A stretch of 63,356 bases of DNA, counting the filler, from Reclinomonas americana ATCC 50394 (Eukaryota), in the NCBI GenBank assembly GCA_048213135.1. It is 6 parts of 6 records of this genome, joined end to end, with 100 filler letters (N's around TTAATTAATTAA, not from the genome) between each part and the next. Parts side by side here need not be neighbours in the genome. Positions count along the whole stretch, not along the records: positions 1 to 18,452 come from PS015379.1; 5 more parts are not named here. One strand, written 5' to 3'. Of this stretch, positions 3,616-57,912 are shown piece after piece. A program made the position numbers and the translations under genes. Position 1 is the stretch's first letter. Each line of letters begins with the position of its first letter. The notes under the pieces are model-generated. The model was not told the DNA's origin. It did not search any database and saw nothing but the letters and a program-made list of their open reading frames with translations.

Positions 3616-3653
<38 letters not shown>

Positions 3654-4455
3654 AAGAGGACAATCACTGCTGCTGTCTCTCTCTCTCTCTCTCTCTGCAT
3701 GTGTGCGTGAGAGAGACAGAGGCAGAAACAGAGACGGAGACAGACACACACAGAGGGGGGGGGGAGAAAGCATGAGAGAGTCAGCAGTGGCAGTGATCGC
3801 TCTCTGTCTCACACTCACACACACACGCACACACACTGCCTCATCTGTGCGTGAGAAAGAATGAGTGAGTGTTGTGTTGTTTCTCAGTCTCTCTTCCCTC
3901 TTTCTCTTTCTTCGTCCCTTCCTCCTCTCTTGCTCTCCTCTCTCTCTCTCTCTCTCTCTCTGTGAATGTATGTGCGCGTGTATTCTTCCTCATTTCTCTC
4001 TCTTCTCCCTCATTTCCCTCCTCTCTCTCTCCCTCCCTTCCCCCCCTCTCTCCCTCTCCCCCCTTCCCCCTCTCTCCCCCTCTCCCCCCCTCTCTGCCTC
4101 CGCACACCTTCCTCGGAGAATGTGCCACCTGCGTTGCCTGCTTCACAGAGGCCACCGGAGAGGGCTTTGCCGGGCTGCGCTCACGTGAGGGGCTCTTGAC
4201 AGCAAAACGAGTCACACTGACTTCCGCTGGTCGATCCAGTGGAGGCGGAGGTCGAAGAGCAGAAGAAGAAGGCGGAGGAAGAAGAGGCGGAGAGGGTTGA
4301 TGATCAACTGTGTGTAAACAGAGACAGAGAGAGAGTGAGTAACTGTACAATGCATATGTTTGCCTGCCAAGAGTGTTACCTTGTTCGTCGTCGAGGAAGA
4401 GGGCGAAGCAGGGCGGAGAGTCGTCCTCATCTTCGTCGTCGTTGTGCGTGCTCAT
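72..4455 (-). CDS. Multi-exon low-complexity protein with a UBZ4-type zinc finger and SIM-like motifs; 3' end runs out of the window or into the CT repeat
   Basis: Exon ~1820-1890 encodes ECPICMLRFPLAEINAHVDQC (C-x2-C-x11-H-x3-C). It also has hydrophobic/acidic motifs VTLDEEE, LEILSCASDDDD and ILDLTD, and the exon GYWRTIGGRRTYITGKRKLVGGAAMNQYRQ. The probable ATG at 4455 gives MSTHNDDEDEDD followed by a GT donor. Exon chain approximate. Confidence 0.55.
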
Positions 4456-4937: not shown

Positions 4938-5046
4938 TGCAACTTGACCCACCCGAGTCCCCACTCAACAATCCCCTCTCGTCGACCACAACTGACCCAT
5001 GCATGCCTCAACGAGTCACCCCACCGCTGTGCACCACTCTCCACTT
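4938..5046 (+). promoter_or_regulatory. snRNA promoter elements shared by both U2-like genes
   Basis: TGCAACTTGAC (4938-4948) and CCACAACTGACC (4986-4997) recur on the - strand upstream of the second copy (6463-6473, 6269-6280). The proximal element is at the same distance (48-49 nt) from each inferred start. Confidence 0.6.
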
Positions 5047-5262
5047 GTACCTCTCGGCCCTCGTGGCTGTGATCAAGTGTAGTATCTGTTCTACCCAGAT
5101 TAACCTCTGGGTGCCACGCTCCCAAAAGCGTGGTCACTAGAATGTTAGCCTAATTTCTCATCCCCGGGGTTCCCTCGTACTGTTGGAGAGTCGGCTAGCC
5201 GACGTCTCTCGAGGGATGGGGTGTTCCTCTTATTGCACCCGTCGAGAGGATACGCCCTGCCC
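5047..5262 (+). ncRNA. U2: U2 spliceosomal snRNA
   Basis: Contains CTCGGCC..GGCT-GT-GATCAAGTGTAGTATCTGTTCT (branch-point recognition GUAGUA within 5071-5092), stem IIa CCCAGA/TTAACC/TCTGGG, stem IIb CCACGCT/AGCGTGG, IIc complement GTTAG, Sm-like AATTTCTC, stem III TCCCTCG/CGAGGGA, and terminal stem-loop IV with loop ATTGCAC. Confidence 0.95.
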
Positions 5263-5689
5263 AAACCCCACCATAAACAACTCTGAAAACGAAAAACATG
5301 CTGAAGGGAAGCAACCTCTCTCCCGCTCTCTATCTGCATCTCTCTTTGAGTCTTTTCATGCAACTCTAGCATGGAAGCCTCTCTCTCACACACACACTCT
5401 GTCGCTCTCTCCTGCACAACATATGGGTGTGACAACAAACCTGGCCTCTGAGAGCTGAACACGCGCTTCGAGCGACTGGAAGCCCTGGCGCAGCTCGTCA
5501 AGGACAGCCTGGAGCTTGTCATCGAGAGTCTGGAGCTTGTCATCGAGCTTGCCAAGTATCTCAGCACGCAGCCCATCCAACAGCTCAACGACATCCTCAC
5601 GGGTTGCCGCCATTTCTCGCCGTCTGTCAGGTCGGAGGAGAACAGGACCTTGTCCGGGGGGTTTACAGCACCCGAAGGTCAGAAGCCAC

Positions 5690-5986: not shown

Positions 5987-6043
5987 ATGACTTGTTTGTT
6001 GTTGTTTTTTTCGTGTTTCAGCGTTTCGTGTGGTGGCGGGGTT

Positions 6044-6220
6044 GGTCAGGGTTGCATCCTCTCGAACCAGTGCAATGAGAGGATGCGCCCCGTCCCTCGG
6101 TTCCCACCGGGGAACGGTGACGGCAAGCCGCACCGACGAAGGAGACTCCCGCAGGAGAAATTAGGTTAACATTCAAGTGGTGCTGGTGAGCGTGGCGCTC
6201 ACGAACGACCGAGTTGTGCT
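6044..6220 (-). ncRNA. U2-derived variant snRNA lacking the branch-point recognition region and stem IIa
   Basis: The reverse complement aligns to the U2 copy: CTCGG..TCGTG, then GCGCCACGCTC..CACTTGAATGTTAACCTAATTTCTCC, stem TCCTTCG/CGAGGGA, and hairpin GCATCCTCTC-ATTGCACTGGTTC-GAGAGGATGC. About 45 nt including GATCAAGTGTAGTA is absent. Confidence 0.75.
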
Positions 6221-6944
6221 GGTTGGAAGGCGGTGCTGGTGGTTGGGTCATTCAGTGTGACACGCGGAGGTCAGTTGTGGGGGATGAGAGACGAAAGAGA
6301 GAGGATTGTTGTGTGTGGACCCTCAATGCAGGGAAGATTGTTTGCTTTCTCCCTTTACTCTTTGTTTTTCTCTTTCCTCACTCGTCTCCTTTCACAAGAG
6401 ATAGGGAAGTGGAGCAATGATGGAGGGGGTTCATGGAGAAGACAGCTTGCTCGTGGCGATGAGTCAAGTTGCAAATTTATGACCGTACGTGATAGGCTTT
6501 TGCTGATTATGTAGTTGTTGACAACTGCGGGGTGTCAGCTGCCGGAGGGAACACCTCGTCCCCTGCTTCTCTCTATTNNNNNNNNNNNNNNNNNNNNGAG
6601 TGAGTGAGTGAGTGAGAGAGTGAGTGAGTGAGAGAGAGAGTGAGTGAGTGAGTGAGTGAGTGAGTGAGTGAGCGAGTGAGTGAGTGAGTGAGTGAGTGAG
6701 TGAGTGAGTGAGTGAGTGAGTGAAGGGGAGTGAGAGAGAGAGAGAGAGAGAGAGGATGAGTGAGTGAGTGAGCGTGTGCAGTGAGGAAGCGCATGTCTCT
6801 GGGTAACCTTTGATCACAGGAGCGCGTCGTACACCACTCGCACTCGCCATTTCTTGCAATCAGTGATCAGTTGGCGCGAAAATTTACTCTCCTTTACTTC
6901 ACCACCGATTCTTCTGCTGCCCTTCTCCCGCGCGCGCGCCAACA

Positions 6945-8296
6945 ATGGCGAGTCGACGCGCACACCCGTCGTCCCCGTCATCCTCCTCCTCGTCTGCCGA
7001 TGACACCGTGGGACAGTCGACAGTGACTGCTGCTGCTCCCTCGGCATCGCGCCCACGATCGCGTGCAGCAACGCCCGCGATCGAGTACTGGAAGGGTGGC
7101 ACTCTGGCACTGGTGGGACCCGCAGGCTCGGGCAAGACCAGCGTTCTTAATCGGTTGTTGTTGAGGCCTCCGGTTGGCGCCTTTGATCCACGACACAAGA
7201 TCCACACCGAGTTGCGTGCTGCACTGAGCTTCTTTCGTTTTTGTATGTGGTGCTGACTACTGTGGTCGACAGGGTACTGCCGATGCGTGTGTGCGTTGGT
7301 GCTTCATTGATCTCACTGACGATTGTTGTCGCAGAGTGAGCCGTTTGTGATCTGCGAGAGAGTGAGTTGTCTGTGTGTTGTGTTTTGTCTCTAACGAGTC
7401 ATGGTGAGGGCAGCGTGTATGAAGCACCACGTCACGATCGATGCACCCAACGGGCAGGAGATCGCCTTTGAGGTGCGGCGAGTCTTTTTGTTGTTCTGCT
7501 GTGCCGCTCTTCTTGATCTGATTTGTCGATTAGCTGCGTGAGATCCCTGGCGTGAGTCCCAAGAGCAAGCCCGGCGAGCCGCAGTTTGGCTACTCGATCC
7601 CGGAGCTGCGCATGATCTTTGAGGGTTCGTGGCTCCGTCAGCAGACCAGTGCAGCTCCATTGCTGACCTCGTTTGCAGATGGTCCACAGGTCGACGCCTG
7701 CATCCTGTTCCTGGACCGCTCCGATGTCGACAGCGTTCGAGTTCAGCTCCCGTCCGCACATATTTCACTACGCACTCCACATTGCTCACTCTCTGAGGAT
7801 CGCGCAGAGCACCGTCCAGTGGGCCCAATTGGTGCGTCTCGTCAATGCCGACATGCCGATCTTCCTCTTCACCACCAAGGTGAGCCATCGACACACATCG
7901 TCAACGCGTCACACGCGATATCTCACCCTGTGCCCCCTTGTCTGTGTGCAGACCGAATCTGCGAACTTCTCCATCGATCTCGAGGAGTGGACACGACCGC
8001 GCAAGACACCCGTCAGCGGGCGCGGTGCAGTGGCACAAGTCATCGACGCGTGGGAGATTGAATGCAACCCGCGCGACGAGACCATCCTCAATCGCAGCCG
8101 CAACAGCATCATCACGGCGCTGCGTGGCGTCTCCAATGTTGCGCACTCGCACGCACCTCTTTTCTCCCTCATGCACTCACTTGTCACCGCCACACAGATC
8201 CTCTCGCGAGAGCGAGTCGAACTCGCGCCCGAGGGAACCCTCGGACTGACCGAGGCCGAGGAGAACCCGCCGCCGCAGAAGAAATCGTGCTGCTGA
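6945..8296 (+). CDS. Divergent Ras-superfamily (Rab-like) small GTPase, multi-exon with microexons
   Basis: P-loop LVGPAGSGKTS, G3-like EIPG, VDACILFLD, G4-like FTTK-TE, and C-terminal KKSCC prenylation motif before TGA. Confidence 0.65.
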
Positions 8297-29805: not shown

Positions 29806-31239
29806 ATGCTTCTCCGCGCGACCACACGACTGCTCACACTCTCGCGCCCTTCCTGTGCGCATGTGCGCTCATTGGCACTCTTCTCTTCCTCTGCATCGCA
29901 ACCTCCACAAGAGCAACAACAACAACAACAAGAGAATGCAGAAGAAGCAAAGGTAAGTCACCTCCCTCTCTCTCTCTCTTTCTCTTACGCTTGTCACTGT
30001 TTGCAGTCTTGTTGTGCATCTCTCTCTCTCTCTCTCAATCTCTCTGTTGAGATGTGATTGCTGCATCTCTCTCACTCTCCGTCGTTCTCTCCGTATCTCC
30101 TCATGCATTTCTCTCCTCGTCTCCTCCTTTGTTGCTTCTCTCCCTTCCCTTTACAAGCCACTGCCTCTCTCATCTCTCCCTCTCTCTCCCTTCTCTTCCC
30201 TGGCCCTTCACTCTCCGTGTCTTCCTCCTCTTCTTTTCTCTTCCCTCTCTTCTCTCTGCTCTCTTCACTCACTTCCGCTGCTTTGCTCATTCTCCTTCAC
30301 TGCCCACTGCCTCTCCCTTCTCCCTTCCCTCCCTCTTCCTCCTATCCCTCCCTTATCCTCTGCCCCTCTCCTTCTCCTTATCCCTCTCTTTCTCCCTCTC
30401 CCCTCCCTCCTTCTCCTTATCCCTCCCTTCCCCCTTCCCCCTCCCTTCCCCCTGCATAGCCCGGCTTCCTCCGCCGCACCATCCTCCGCTTCATGGGCTA
30501 CTACAGCCTCGAGAGCGTGCATCTGCGCGCCTCCGCCCAGCTCTTCTCCACCATTCGCGCCCAGTGTGAATCGCCGGCACTTTACACGGGTCAGTGTTGA
30601 GACGAGCGCCGAAGAGAAAGAGAGACGTGAACGCCGATCGCTCATCGCTTTTACCGCAGCATTCCAGCTTCCTCGCGACTTTCGCAGCGAGTACGCCATG
30701 CTGACGCTGCATACGTGGTTTGTGCTGTCGCGATTGCGTGCGTGCGGTCGCGAGGGGCAGGATCTGCGGGCGACACTGTGCGAGGCATTGTGGGATGATA
30801 CGTTCCGGAGAGTGCGCGAAAAGGGAGTTGCGTAGTGGCGCGCGTCGCTTGTGCACACTCGCTGCGGTGAGACTCAACCAGACAAATCAAACAAAGGTCA
30901 CGGAGATGCGTGTGGGCAAGCAGGTGAAGCAGTTGCAGCAGTCGTTCCTCGGCGCCGCCGTGTCGTTCGACAAGGGCATTGTTGCGTCTCTCCTCCTGTC
31001 GCGCACGCAGTTTCTTTGTACCAACGACTGCGATGCAGGCCAATACCGCCAACAACAACGAGGCGCTGCGGTCGGCGCTGTGGCGCAACGTGTACGCGGA
31101 ACAGGGAGCGAGCGCCGATCAACCACACATTCACCGGCTCGTCAGCTACGTCTACGGCAACATTCATCGACTAGAGAAGATCTCCAACTACGACATGATG
31201 CACGGACGCGCCACGTTCCAGGAGCTCAAGGCGGAGTGA
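29806..31239 (+). CDS. UQCC1: Ubiquinol-cytochrome c reductase assembly factor (Cbp3/UQCC1)
   Basis: Mitochondrial-type presequence, FQLPRDFRSEYAMLTLHTWFVLSRLR, LWDD, FLGAAVSFDKGI, LRSALWRNVY and LVSYV. Confidence 0.88.
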
Positions 31240-55046: not shown

Positions 55047-56589
55047 ATGTGGTCGCAGTCACTTCGACTGCGGCTGCTCGGCCTGATGCCGCCACAGCGC
55101 ACCACTGCGGTGGTGCAGCAGATGGTGTGGGCATCCACGCGCGCCTCCATTCAGCGTGTGGAGAGCGAGTCGTTCCTCAGTGGAGCCTCTGCGTTGCGTA
55201 ACAGACTGAGAAGAAGAGTGGAGAGGAGAGGAGTGAGCAGATGCACAAGCAAAGAGACAACACGTGCGTGAGAGTGAGTGTGAGTGTGTGCGTTGGTTTG
55301 GCCCACATGGGCATGCCTGTGTTAGTTTTGGTCAATCTGCATGCTCTTCTCTCTCGCTTGACTCTCACTGTGCGCGCGCGTGTGTGTGTGCGTGCTGGCT
55401 CGTTCTGGTCTCTGGGAGAAGAAGAAAAAAACGAGTCGACTGCTGCAAAGTTTTGATTGATGTATAATGTTCGTTTTCCCTCGCAAACACACAGATGCAC
55501 AGATGCACTCTTTCTCTCTTCCTTTCTCTCTCATTGTGCTCGCTCGACCAGCGCATTCACACACAGATCAGTGATTGATGAAATGGGAAACTGGGGGGGG
55601 GGGGTTTGCTGTCAGTCATCTGCATGTCGTACTCACACACACTCGCATACAGTCAAGTGGTAGACGACATGTATCAGCAGTGGCAGGCGGATGCCAACTC
55701 GGTGCCGGAGTCGTGGCGCAAGTTTTTCGGCGATGTGGATCGCTCAGGTGCTGTGGATCCGAGCAAATCGATTCCCTTTGTGCCGCTCGCACGCACCACC
55801 GTCCTCTCGGCGGCGGCGGTGGAGGCCACTGGATCGCAGGCGTCGCCCATGACCAGCAAGAGCGTCGAGCGAGAGCTGCAGGATCACAACATTCGTTGCG
55901 CGCGCGTGTTGTGTTGCCTTCTTTTGCTGCCCTTCCTGACCCTCTCGCGTGCGCACAGTGACACAGCTCATTCGTGGGTACCGCGTGCGCGGCCACTTGC
56001 TGGCCGACTTGGACCCGCTCAAGCTCGACAAGCGCCCCTACGCGGCCGATCTCGATCCAAGCAGCTACGGTTTCACGGAGGCCGACATGCAACGCAAGTT
56101 TTACGTGGGCGAGAGTCTGGGCCTGGTGGCCACCGAGGAGGAGCCGCATTCATGGCGCACCCTCGAGTCCATCATTGCACAGCTCAAGTCTGCGTACTGC
56201 GGCCGGCTCGGTGTGGAGTTCTTCCACATTGCCGATCAGGGCCAGCGTGCTTTCCTCGGTCGCATTGTTGCGCATGTTGTTGTTATTATTGTTGTCGTCG
56301 CGTCGCTTTTGTGGCACATTGCTTACTCGTGCTGCAGATGGAGCGCCAGAACCCGTACGCACTCTCGGCAGAGAAGAAGAAACGTATCCTGCTGGGTTTG
56401 CTGCACGCTGACCGCTTCGAGAACTTCCTCAAGACCAAGTGGACCACGGCCAAGCGCTTTGGACTGGAGGGTGGCGAGGCTCTGATCCCGGCTCTGGACA
56501 TGCTGATTACGCACGCGTCGGAGCTCGGTGTCGAGGCTTGCGTGCTCGGCATGCCCCATCGTGGTCGTCTATCTGTGCTGTGCAACATT
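55047..56589 (+). CDS. OGDH: 2-oxoglutarate dehydrogenase E1, 5' part
   Basis: Presequence plus ESFLSGASA|QVVDDMYQQWQADANSVPESW, LIRGYRVRGHLLADLDPL, YCGRLGVEFFHI, FENFL-TKW-TAKRFGLEGGE and GMPHRGRL. Confidence 0.95.
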
Positions 56590-56759
56590 GTTGCGTCGCT
56601 GATGCTGCTGATGATGGATGCACAGTGTGCTCTCTGCTCACCCTTTTTCTCTCCCATCNNNNNNNNNNNNNNNNNNNNNNNNNNNNNNNNNNNNNNNNNN
56701 NNTTAATTAATTAANNNNNNNNNNNNNNNNNNNNNNNNNNNNNNNNNNNNNNNNNNNNT

Positions 56760-57912
<1,153 letters not shown>

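Follow-up and report, generated by a model that had tools for sequence, protein, structure and literature searches.

A truncated U2-like snRNA gene in Reclinomonas americana and the complementarity of its 5' arm to GUUGCG donors

Introduction

Positions 6209-6220 of a 63,356-nt window of the Reclinomonas americana ATCC 50394 genome (the window being the whole stretch of DNA that was analysed) have been described as the start of a variant small nuclear RNA whose 5' arm reads like that of U1, retuned to the GUUG donors of this genome. The locus raises the question of whether this arm recognises 5' splice sites or is a leftover of the U2 snRNA to which the rest of the gene is related. If the arm reads donors, it would be the first 5' splice-site reader on a U2 chassis, and a new snRNP specificity would have arisen from a gene duplicate through one deletion and three point changes. 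If it is simply U2 sequence that has drifted, the locus is an ordinary variant or a pseudo-snRNA gene. We analyzed the anatomy and predicted fold of the variant, the origin of its arm, the donor classes of the window and the pairing between arm and donors, and weighed these results against several explanations of what the RNA may be.

Results

The variant gene and the U2 gene of the same genome

Direct reading of 6209-6220 gives CCGAGTTGTGCT on the plus strand and AGCACAACTCGG on the minus strand. This agrees with the preliminary description. Also in agreement with it, alignment and the Sm block place the segment at the start of a gene that resembles U2 and is read from the minus strand. This variant gene lies between about 6219 and about 6035. 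About 1 kb away is a bona fide U2 snRNA gene, which is the sole match to the Rfam U2 model (RF00004) in the window and has a 5' end that reads (GU)ACCUCUCGGCC. The features of the two genes are listed below, the variant running from its upstream boxes to its 3' end.

5049..5264, plus strand: bona fide U2 snRNA gene (Rfam RF00004, 84.2 bits, E 3.6e-15)
6303..6315, minus strand: distal upstream box CACACAACAATCC, 12/13 against the true U2 box at 4962-4974 (plus strand)
6269..6280, minus strand: proximal promoter box CCACAACTGACC, 12/12 identical to the U2 box at 4986-4997 (plus strand)
6209..6220, minus strand: the arm, predicted RNA 5' end AGCACAACUCGG, from the sequence and its spacing from the promoter box
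6179..6210, minus strand: new irregular hairpin, nt 11-42 of the RNA, from folds and alignment with U2
6155..6174, minus strand: Sm-site block GAAUGUUAACCUAAUUUCUC, 19/20 against U2 5140-5159, predicted single-stranded
6089..6152, minus strand: remodelled stem-loop III domain, from alignment and folds
6049..6088, minus strand: stem-loop IV with loop AUUGCAC, from alignment and fold
6007..6048, minus strand: 3' tail CCAACCCCGCCACCA and 3'-box-like CTGAAAC..AAAAAAAC, as 3' of U2

The resemblance to U2 is concentrated in blocks. In the alignment, the distance from the proximal box to the RNA start is gapless and equal in the two genes, and the stretch between box and start is just 24/49 identical. 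Region by region, the wider stretch around the Sm block is identical to U2 at 21 of 24 positions, and the core 20-mer has two matches in the window, one in the variant and one in U2, where none would be expected. Stem-loop III is about half identical to its counterpart; the outer stem has been kept, with a C-G pair replaced by U-G, and the inside has been rebuilt as two hairpins. Stem-loop IV agrees with U2 at 29 of 38 aligned positions, and its differences include one compensatory change from U-A to C-G, one change from U-G to C-G, and an inserted A that pairs a bulge present in U2, with a predicted energy of -24.5 kcal/mol for the variant versus -19.3 kcal/mol for U2. Its AUUGCA-type loop is presumably the binding site for a protein of the U2B''/U1A type. 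The 3' tail and the CTGAAA-type box are identical to U2 at 25 of 39 aligned positions. The variant thus has several features of membership in U2: stem-loops III and IV lie 3' of the Sm site, stem-loop IV bears an AUUGCA-type loop, and the promoter and 3' box are of the snRNA type, like those of the bona fide U2 of the same genome. This block-wise conservation, together with the helix-preserving changes, suggests that the variant gene is, or recently was, under maintenance.

The 5' half is another matter. A 43-column gap opposite U2 5060-5112 removes the remainder of stem-loop I together with the GUAGUA branch-site reader and stem-loop IIa; the stretch of U2 that pairs with U6 is also missing, and GUAGUA is absent from the minus-strand sequence of the variant. 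Lacking the 3' half of stem-loop I, the GUAGUA reader and stem-loop IIa, the variant is incapable of the work of U2. The hairpin of nt 11-42 has, in the predicted fold, a perfect 7-bp core (GUGAGCG-CCA-CGCUCAC), and its 3' strand is the reused GCCACGCUC of U2 stem-loop IIb. The variant RNA as a whole folds at -76.8 kcal/mol (z = -3.3), and unpaired probabilities and the fold leave nt 1-10 mostly unpaired and the Sm site likewise free. Searching 6030-6220 with Rfam, including RF00004 (gathering threshold 46 bits), gave no match at E up to 10, and no Rfam family was named for the variant locus in a scan of the whole window at permissive thresholds (E up to 5).

Both snRNA genes and a neighbouring P-loop GTPase gene lie on one piece of the window, which is a draft sequence, with only gaps of 20-29 N between them. 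A long (GAGT)n microsatellite with an N gap beside it occupies 6598-6780, between the variant snRNA and the GTPase gene. Elsewhere, five N44-TTAATTAATTAA-N44 linkers with stops in six frames, at 18453, 39271, 44815, 56659 and 61810, join separate contigs, so that gene neighbourhood across them is artificial; an OGDH gene, for example, breaks off at the linker at 56659 and a TTL gene comes next. Palindromes of GA/CT repeats at 3619-3695 and 44753-45000, the second spanning a linker, gave spurious microRNA-family matches on both strands in the permissive Rfam scan.

Start site and origin of the arm

In the gapless alignment from the promoter box, G5047 of U2 falls opposite 6219, and A5049, the first base of the Rfam match, falls opposite 6217. 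From this alignment and the Rfam start of U2 we infer that the variant RNA begins within 6217-6220. The preliminary description had placed the start at 6220, give or take one nucleotide, from the promoter spacing; that position lies one base upstream of the alignment with G5047, and the start is less certain than was stated there. The difference has consequences for pairing, since with a start at 6217 the arm would extend only to donor position +4/+5.

Aligned without gaps from the promoter box, GUACCUCUCGGCC of U2 and GCACAACUCGGUC of the variant are identical at 9 of 13 positions. The arm can be derived from the 5' end of U2 itself (GUACCUCUCGG) by three substitutions, U to C, C to A and U to A. 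Unchanged from U2 are CUCGG, which pairs with the exon side of a donor, and the A that faces donor +5. As for the changed bases, the U-to-C substitution faces the +6 G, and the C-to-A and U-to-A substitutions face the U at +3 and at +2. All three create or strengthen pairing with GUUGCG, an outcome with a nominal chance of about 1 in 27. The three changes produce the motif CACAACT, which also forms the promoter-box core of U2 and of the variant and may therefore have a second cause.

Donor classes in the window

Introns could be anchored by Pfam profiles or by homolog alignment in three genes.

57060-57123, 57333-57402, 57597-57668 and 57732-57806, plus strand: introns of the TTL gene with GTTGCG (Pfam profile coordinates, parse)
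57425-57486, plus strand: intron of the TTL gene with GTACTT (Pfam profile coordinates, sequence, parse)
55895-55958 and 56267-56337, plus strand: introns of the OGDH gene, both GTTGCG (homolog alignment)
30827-30896 and 30981-31038, plus strand: introns of the ubiquinol-cytochrome c chaperone gene, both GTTGCG (Pfam coordinates, sequence)

GTTGCG thus begins eight of the nine anchored introns. The OGDH exon between the two introns lies in another reading frame and matches residues 117-221 of homolog P0001 (E 6e-22); the best homolog match found for an OGDH exon has 31% identity. Counted on both strands of the window, GTTGCG occurs 92 times versus three times for GTAAGT.

All intron statistics come from this one 63-kb concatenated window and from a home-made Viterbi parser with codon, acceptor, branch and length terms. 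When the parser was kept blind to the donor beyond GT, it called 141 introns, among which GTTGCG came first with 25 and the next hexamers had 5 each. When GTTGCG and 18 GTRNGN hexamers were given an equal bonus, it called 121 introns, of which 35 begin with GTTGCG (class 2 below), 52 with GTRNGN (class 1) and 34 with other hexamers. These shares are rough, since the parser calls too many introns, puts some donors in the wrong place and does not find exon 1 of the GTPase gene. The GUUGCG class of the preliminary description is therefore real (8/9 anchored introns), but it is the commonest class (25/141 in the donor-blind parse) and not a second one, as it had been called there.

With a slash marking the splice site, class 1 has the form AG/GUGMGU, with G at -1 in 28 of 52 introns, A at -2 in 20 of 52 and G at -3 in 18 of 52. 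Class 2 has the form H/GUUGCGU. Position -1 is never G (0/36) and is instead A (14/36), U (14/36) or C (8/36); G stands at -2 in 13 of 36; at +7, 26 of 36 have U and 5 of 36 have C. The two classes do not differ in intron length (median 69-70 nt) or in acceptors, and they are found side by side within the same genes. The extended donor GAGTTGCGT (GA/GTTGCGT) is found nine times against 1.06 expected. Five of these nine sites read TCGA/GTTGCGT; they differ in codon phase, and their introns have no further similarity. Searches of the literature with literal strings found neither a GTTGCG or GUUGCG donor class nor unusual donors in protists with an adapted U1, which other authors may have described in other terms.

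Several minor observations concern these introns. Among predicted introns, the branch motif may differ between the classes, with YTCAC in 16 of 25 of class 2, whereas class 1 has CTCAY mixed with YTGAY. In the variant RNA, the new hairpin has a 3' strand, CGCUCAC, that resembles the common branch motif (G/A)CUCAC, and an exactly complementary 5' strand, GUGAGCG; the resemblance may be coincidence. On the minus strand, three tandem paralogous first exons at 26411, 27893 and 29704 have the arrangement ATGTCGTCC...GTGGGCCCCAA/GTTGCGT, each with GA/GT-rich repeats after it, and seem to form a small family of tandem genes.

Pairing of the arm with donors

In the register of U1, C8 of the arm stands opposite the +1 G of the donor. 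The arm is complementary to GUUGCG donors in this register, as previously claimed, with a single mismatch at +5, where its A faces an invariant C. A donor reading CGA/GUUGUG would be the perfect complement of the arm, as had also been proposed, but GTTGTG carries no donor signature in the window, being preceded by G at -1 in 10 of 59 occurrences and by GA in 4 of 59.

Pair counts favour GUUGCG over GTRNG donors within the window. On class 2 the arm forms a mean of 6.8 Watson-Crick and 1.1 G-U pairs, and on class 1 a mean of 3.4 and 1.0. The class-wide energy is within chance; over all parsed class-2 donors the mean duplex energy is -8.0 to -8.3 kcal/mol, and 9.6-11% of shuffled arms and 7.9-9.4% of 12-mers from the genome do as well. 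On the nine GA/GUUGCGU sites the mean is -12.06 kcal/mol, matched by 0.4-0.7% of controls. A random 12-mer would match CGCAAC in a fixed register with at most one mismatch at P = 0.0055, a value that goes with an uncertain register and a post hoc hypothesis. Targets of the full 12-mer with at most two mismatches are not enriched in the window (8 found vs 8.66 expected). At +7, which is mostly U, an A in U1 would be a better fit than G2 of the arm, which favours C.

The best target of the arm anywhere in the window, at -14.7 kcal/mol, is the donor at 7211 of the following predicted intron.

7211..7273, plus strand: predicted first intron of the neighbouring P-loop GTPase gene, donor CCGA/GTTGCGTGCT

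The gene is read from an ATG at 6946 and contains the P-loop; reading through the intron leads to a stop after 14 codons, and the Viterbi parser did not recover the intron. Around the donor, 7207-7220 is CCGAGTTGCGTGCT and pairs with the arm over eight contiguous bases, with TGCT following after a 2-nt bulge, which bears out the match reported for this site. The arm is able to pair imperfectly with GUUGCG donors. Whether it has been tuned to them is a separate matter, on which the evidence is indirect and leans against.

Discussion

Comparison with known snRNAs

The variant is by descent a U2 paralog. It shares with U2 (RF00004) the promoter boxes and their spacing, a 5' end of the form ..CUCGG.C, the Sm block, the outer stem of stem-loop III, stem-loop IV with its AUUGCAC loop, the 3' tail and the 3' box. 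It differs from U2 in lacking the 3' strand of stem-loop I, GUAGUA, the U6-pairing stretch and stem-loop IIa, in place of which it has the new hairpin. Like U1 (RF00003), it has a short free 5' arm directly before a helix, with C8 opposite the +1 G of a donor class. Unlike U1, it lacks ACUUACCU, its body is that of U2, its arm mismatches the +5 C, and a single hairpin (nt 11-42) precedes the Sm site in place of a four-way junction with stem-loops I-III, which hold the U1-70K and U1A sites. The U2 model score and the lost branch-site reader set it apart from the U2 family, and the differences from U1 just listed set it apart from the U1 family, which it resembles in arm geometry alone.

No Rfam match to U1 was found anywhere in the window, and a scan of its full length at E up to 5 gave none to the minor-spliceosome RNAs U11, U12, U4atac and U6atac. 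Identities as U11, U12 or a spliced-leader RNA were considered and rejected, there being no model matches and no AAGGAA-type branch reader, and the GUCGUU that follows the arm not being a donor type of this window.

The animal variant snRNAs known to us keep the overall architecture of the parent snRNA, and we know of no variant snRNA paralog that has lost a whole domain. The present variant is unlike them in lacking a whole functional domain. Altered extra copies of snRNA genes are described for human vU1 (PMC3561869 and PMC10870369) and among human snRNA sequence variants (PMC8457000). The variant resembles these human RNAs in that they may be transcribed and packaged and are proposed to alter target choice. 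The order of free 5' arm, hairpin, Sm site and 3' structure is also that of U7, U11 and the HSURs; the target of the variant is putative, and its 3' domain, unlike theirs, is that of U2.

What the variant RNA may be

The explanation that we favour, tentatively and short of calling it probable, is that the RNA is made and packaged as a non-catalytic, core-only offshoot of U2 without an evolved role at donors. In this case a second, truncated gene of the U2 type would still be transcribed, and its RNA would acquire a cap, Sm proteins and the proteins of U2 stem-loop IV. The resulting core-only particle would be degenerating, or would be at most a competitor for the core proteins of U2. Pairing with GUUGCG would be mostly a by-product, with the CUCGG half-helix and the A opposite the +5 C inherited from U2. 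A core-only particle is a weak reason for the apparent maintenance of the gene.

The GUUGCG donors would then be read most simply by an ordinary U1 shifted by one base. GA/GUUGCGU is GAG/GUGCGU with one base changed and cut one base upstream, or, put differently, GUGCGU with an extra U. After a one-base shift the flanks of the two classes correspond, given that A at -1 of class 2 (14/36) is close to A at -2 of class 1 (20/52) and that G at -2 of class 2 is likewise close to G at -3 of class 1. A human-type U1 arm in the shifted register forms 4.8 Watson-Crick and 1.5 G-U pairs on GUUGCG (2.9 Watson-Crick when unshifted), and in the normal register it forms 5.5 Watson-Crick and 1.7 G-U pairs on class 1. 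Non-canonical registers between U1 and the 5' splice site were reportedly described by Roca and Krainer in 2009. PMC4856993 and a review (PMC9311317) document shifted registers and registers with bulges at +2/+3 for U1 at human donors. Reports on humans treat such donors as exceptions, whereas GUUGCG is here the commonest donor (8/9 anchored and 35/121 parsed introns, the latter from the rough parse). Nearest-neighbour energies speak against the shifted U1, with -1.1 kcal/mol for the human-type arm versus -8.0 kcal/mol for the variant arm on class 2, and the variant arm in the U1 register forms more pairs on GUUGCG than the human-type arm in any register. A shifted U1 also leaves the absence of G at -1 (0/36) and the preference for TCGA unexplained; an exon ending in CGA suits the UCG of the variant arm, not the CCUG of standard U1.

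These last points lead to the reading proposed in the preliminary description, according to which an snRNP with the body of U2 and an arm like that of U1 would bind (Y)CGA/GUUGCGU and help to recognise or regulate this class, while ordinary U1 would serve AG/GUGMGU. We consider a particle of this kind unlikely. Its geometry would be U1-like, with about 10 free nucleotides and then a helix from nt 11 in the predicted fold, and it would explain why the arm pairs better with class 2 (6.8 + 1.1 pairs) than with class 1 (3.4 + 1.0), why the energy of -12.06 kcal/mol on GA/GUUGCGU sites is reached by only 0.4-0.7% of controls, and why all three substitutions relative to U2 improve pairing. The exon preference for (T)CGA is complementary to UCG(G), the gene looks maintained, and the commonest donor, GUUGCG, is bound poorly by a human-type U1 arm as judged by energy. 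However, the arm places an A against the invariant +5 C and its ideal partner GUUGUG is unused as a donor; +7 favours U over C; the A at -1 that would pair with U9 is present in only 14 of 36 introns, with U in another 14; and the class-wide energy is within chance. Half of the helix is inherited from U2, and CACAACT, as the promoter-box core, may have another cause. The RNA also lacks the four-way junction and stem-loop I of U1 and draws no Rfam match to U1 or U11, and a start at 6217 would limit the arm to +4/+5. The single mismatch of the arm is not disqualifying, since yeast U1 likewise mismatches an invariant donor position (+4). A full division of labour between two particles, with U1 for AG/GUGMGU and a U2-bodied arm made by three substitutions for (Y)CGA/GUUGCGU, the commonest donor type, seems to us decidedly doubtful.

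The free arm might also serve a different target. U7, U11 and the HSURs of herpesviruses are Sm-class RNAs whose action depends on a free 5' arm, and the variant could be a maintained antisense RNA of this class, a regulator or chaperone directed at the 3' region of U6 or at another RNA. U6 would be reached through CUCGG, which the variant keeps from the 5' end of U2 and which is left over from U2/U6 helix II. Over its first 13 nt the variant is closer to U2 (9/13) than over the upstream 49 nt (24/49) or the remainder of the 5' domain; conservation, with helix-preserving changes, extends to the promoter boxes, the Sm block, stem-loop IV and the 3' box; and the arm is free by prediction. Against an antisense role, Rfam identifies no U6 in the window, the three substitutions would weaken pairing with the U6 complement of the canonical U2 end, and targets of the 12-mer are not enriched in the window; we think such a role improbable. 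A silent relic would be a U2 paralog that was recently disabled and is now untranscribed or unstable, with conserved blocks that predate the disabling. The 43-column deletion takes essential parts of U2 and Rfam gives no recognition at E up to 10, as a relic would have it, and stem-loops III and IIb and the flanks vary among functional U2 paralogs, so that the divergence of the variant may itself predate the deletion. The intact promoter boxes and 3' box argue the other way, as does the fold z-score of -3.3, and decay would not be expected to yield a new hairpin with a perfect 7-bp core or a stem-loop IV stronger than that of U2 (-24.5 vs -19.3 kcal/mol). A relic is accordingly very unlikely in our estimation.

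Regardless of what the arm does, the locus holds a maintained-looking offshoot of U2 without any catalytic element, and the commonest donor of the window, GUUGCG, pairs poorly with standard U1 in the normal register. As the commonest donor pairs so poorly with standard U1, this genome is a natural test bed for shifted and bulged registers of U1 and U6.

Beyond this genome, the 20-mer of the Sm block had no matches in metagenome, prokaryote-genome or viral contigs. Two metagenome contigs, L001 and L002, were retrieved with a pattern for the 5' half of U2; they belong to an unrelated organism whose U2 is short. The short U2 of L001 lies at 125-262 (91 bits), and a U1-like start, AAACTTACCTGG, is found about 220 nt downstream, at about 480-495. 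L002 carries three 5S rRNA matches at 945-1858, and the two contigs represent a mixed cluster of small-RNA genes.
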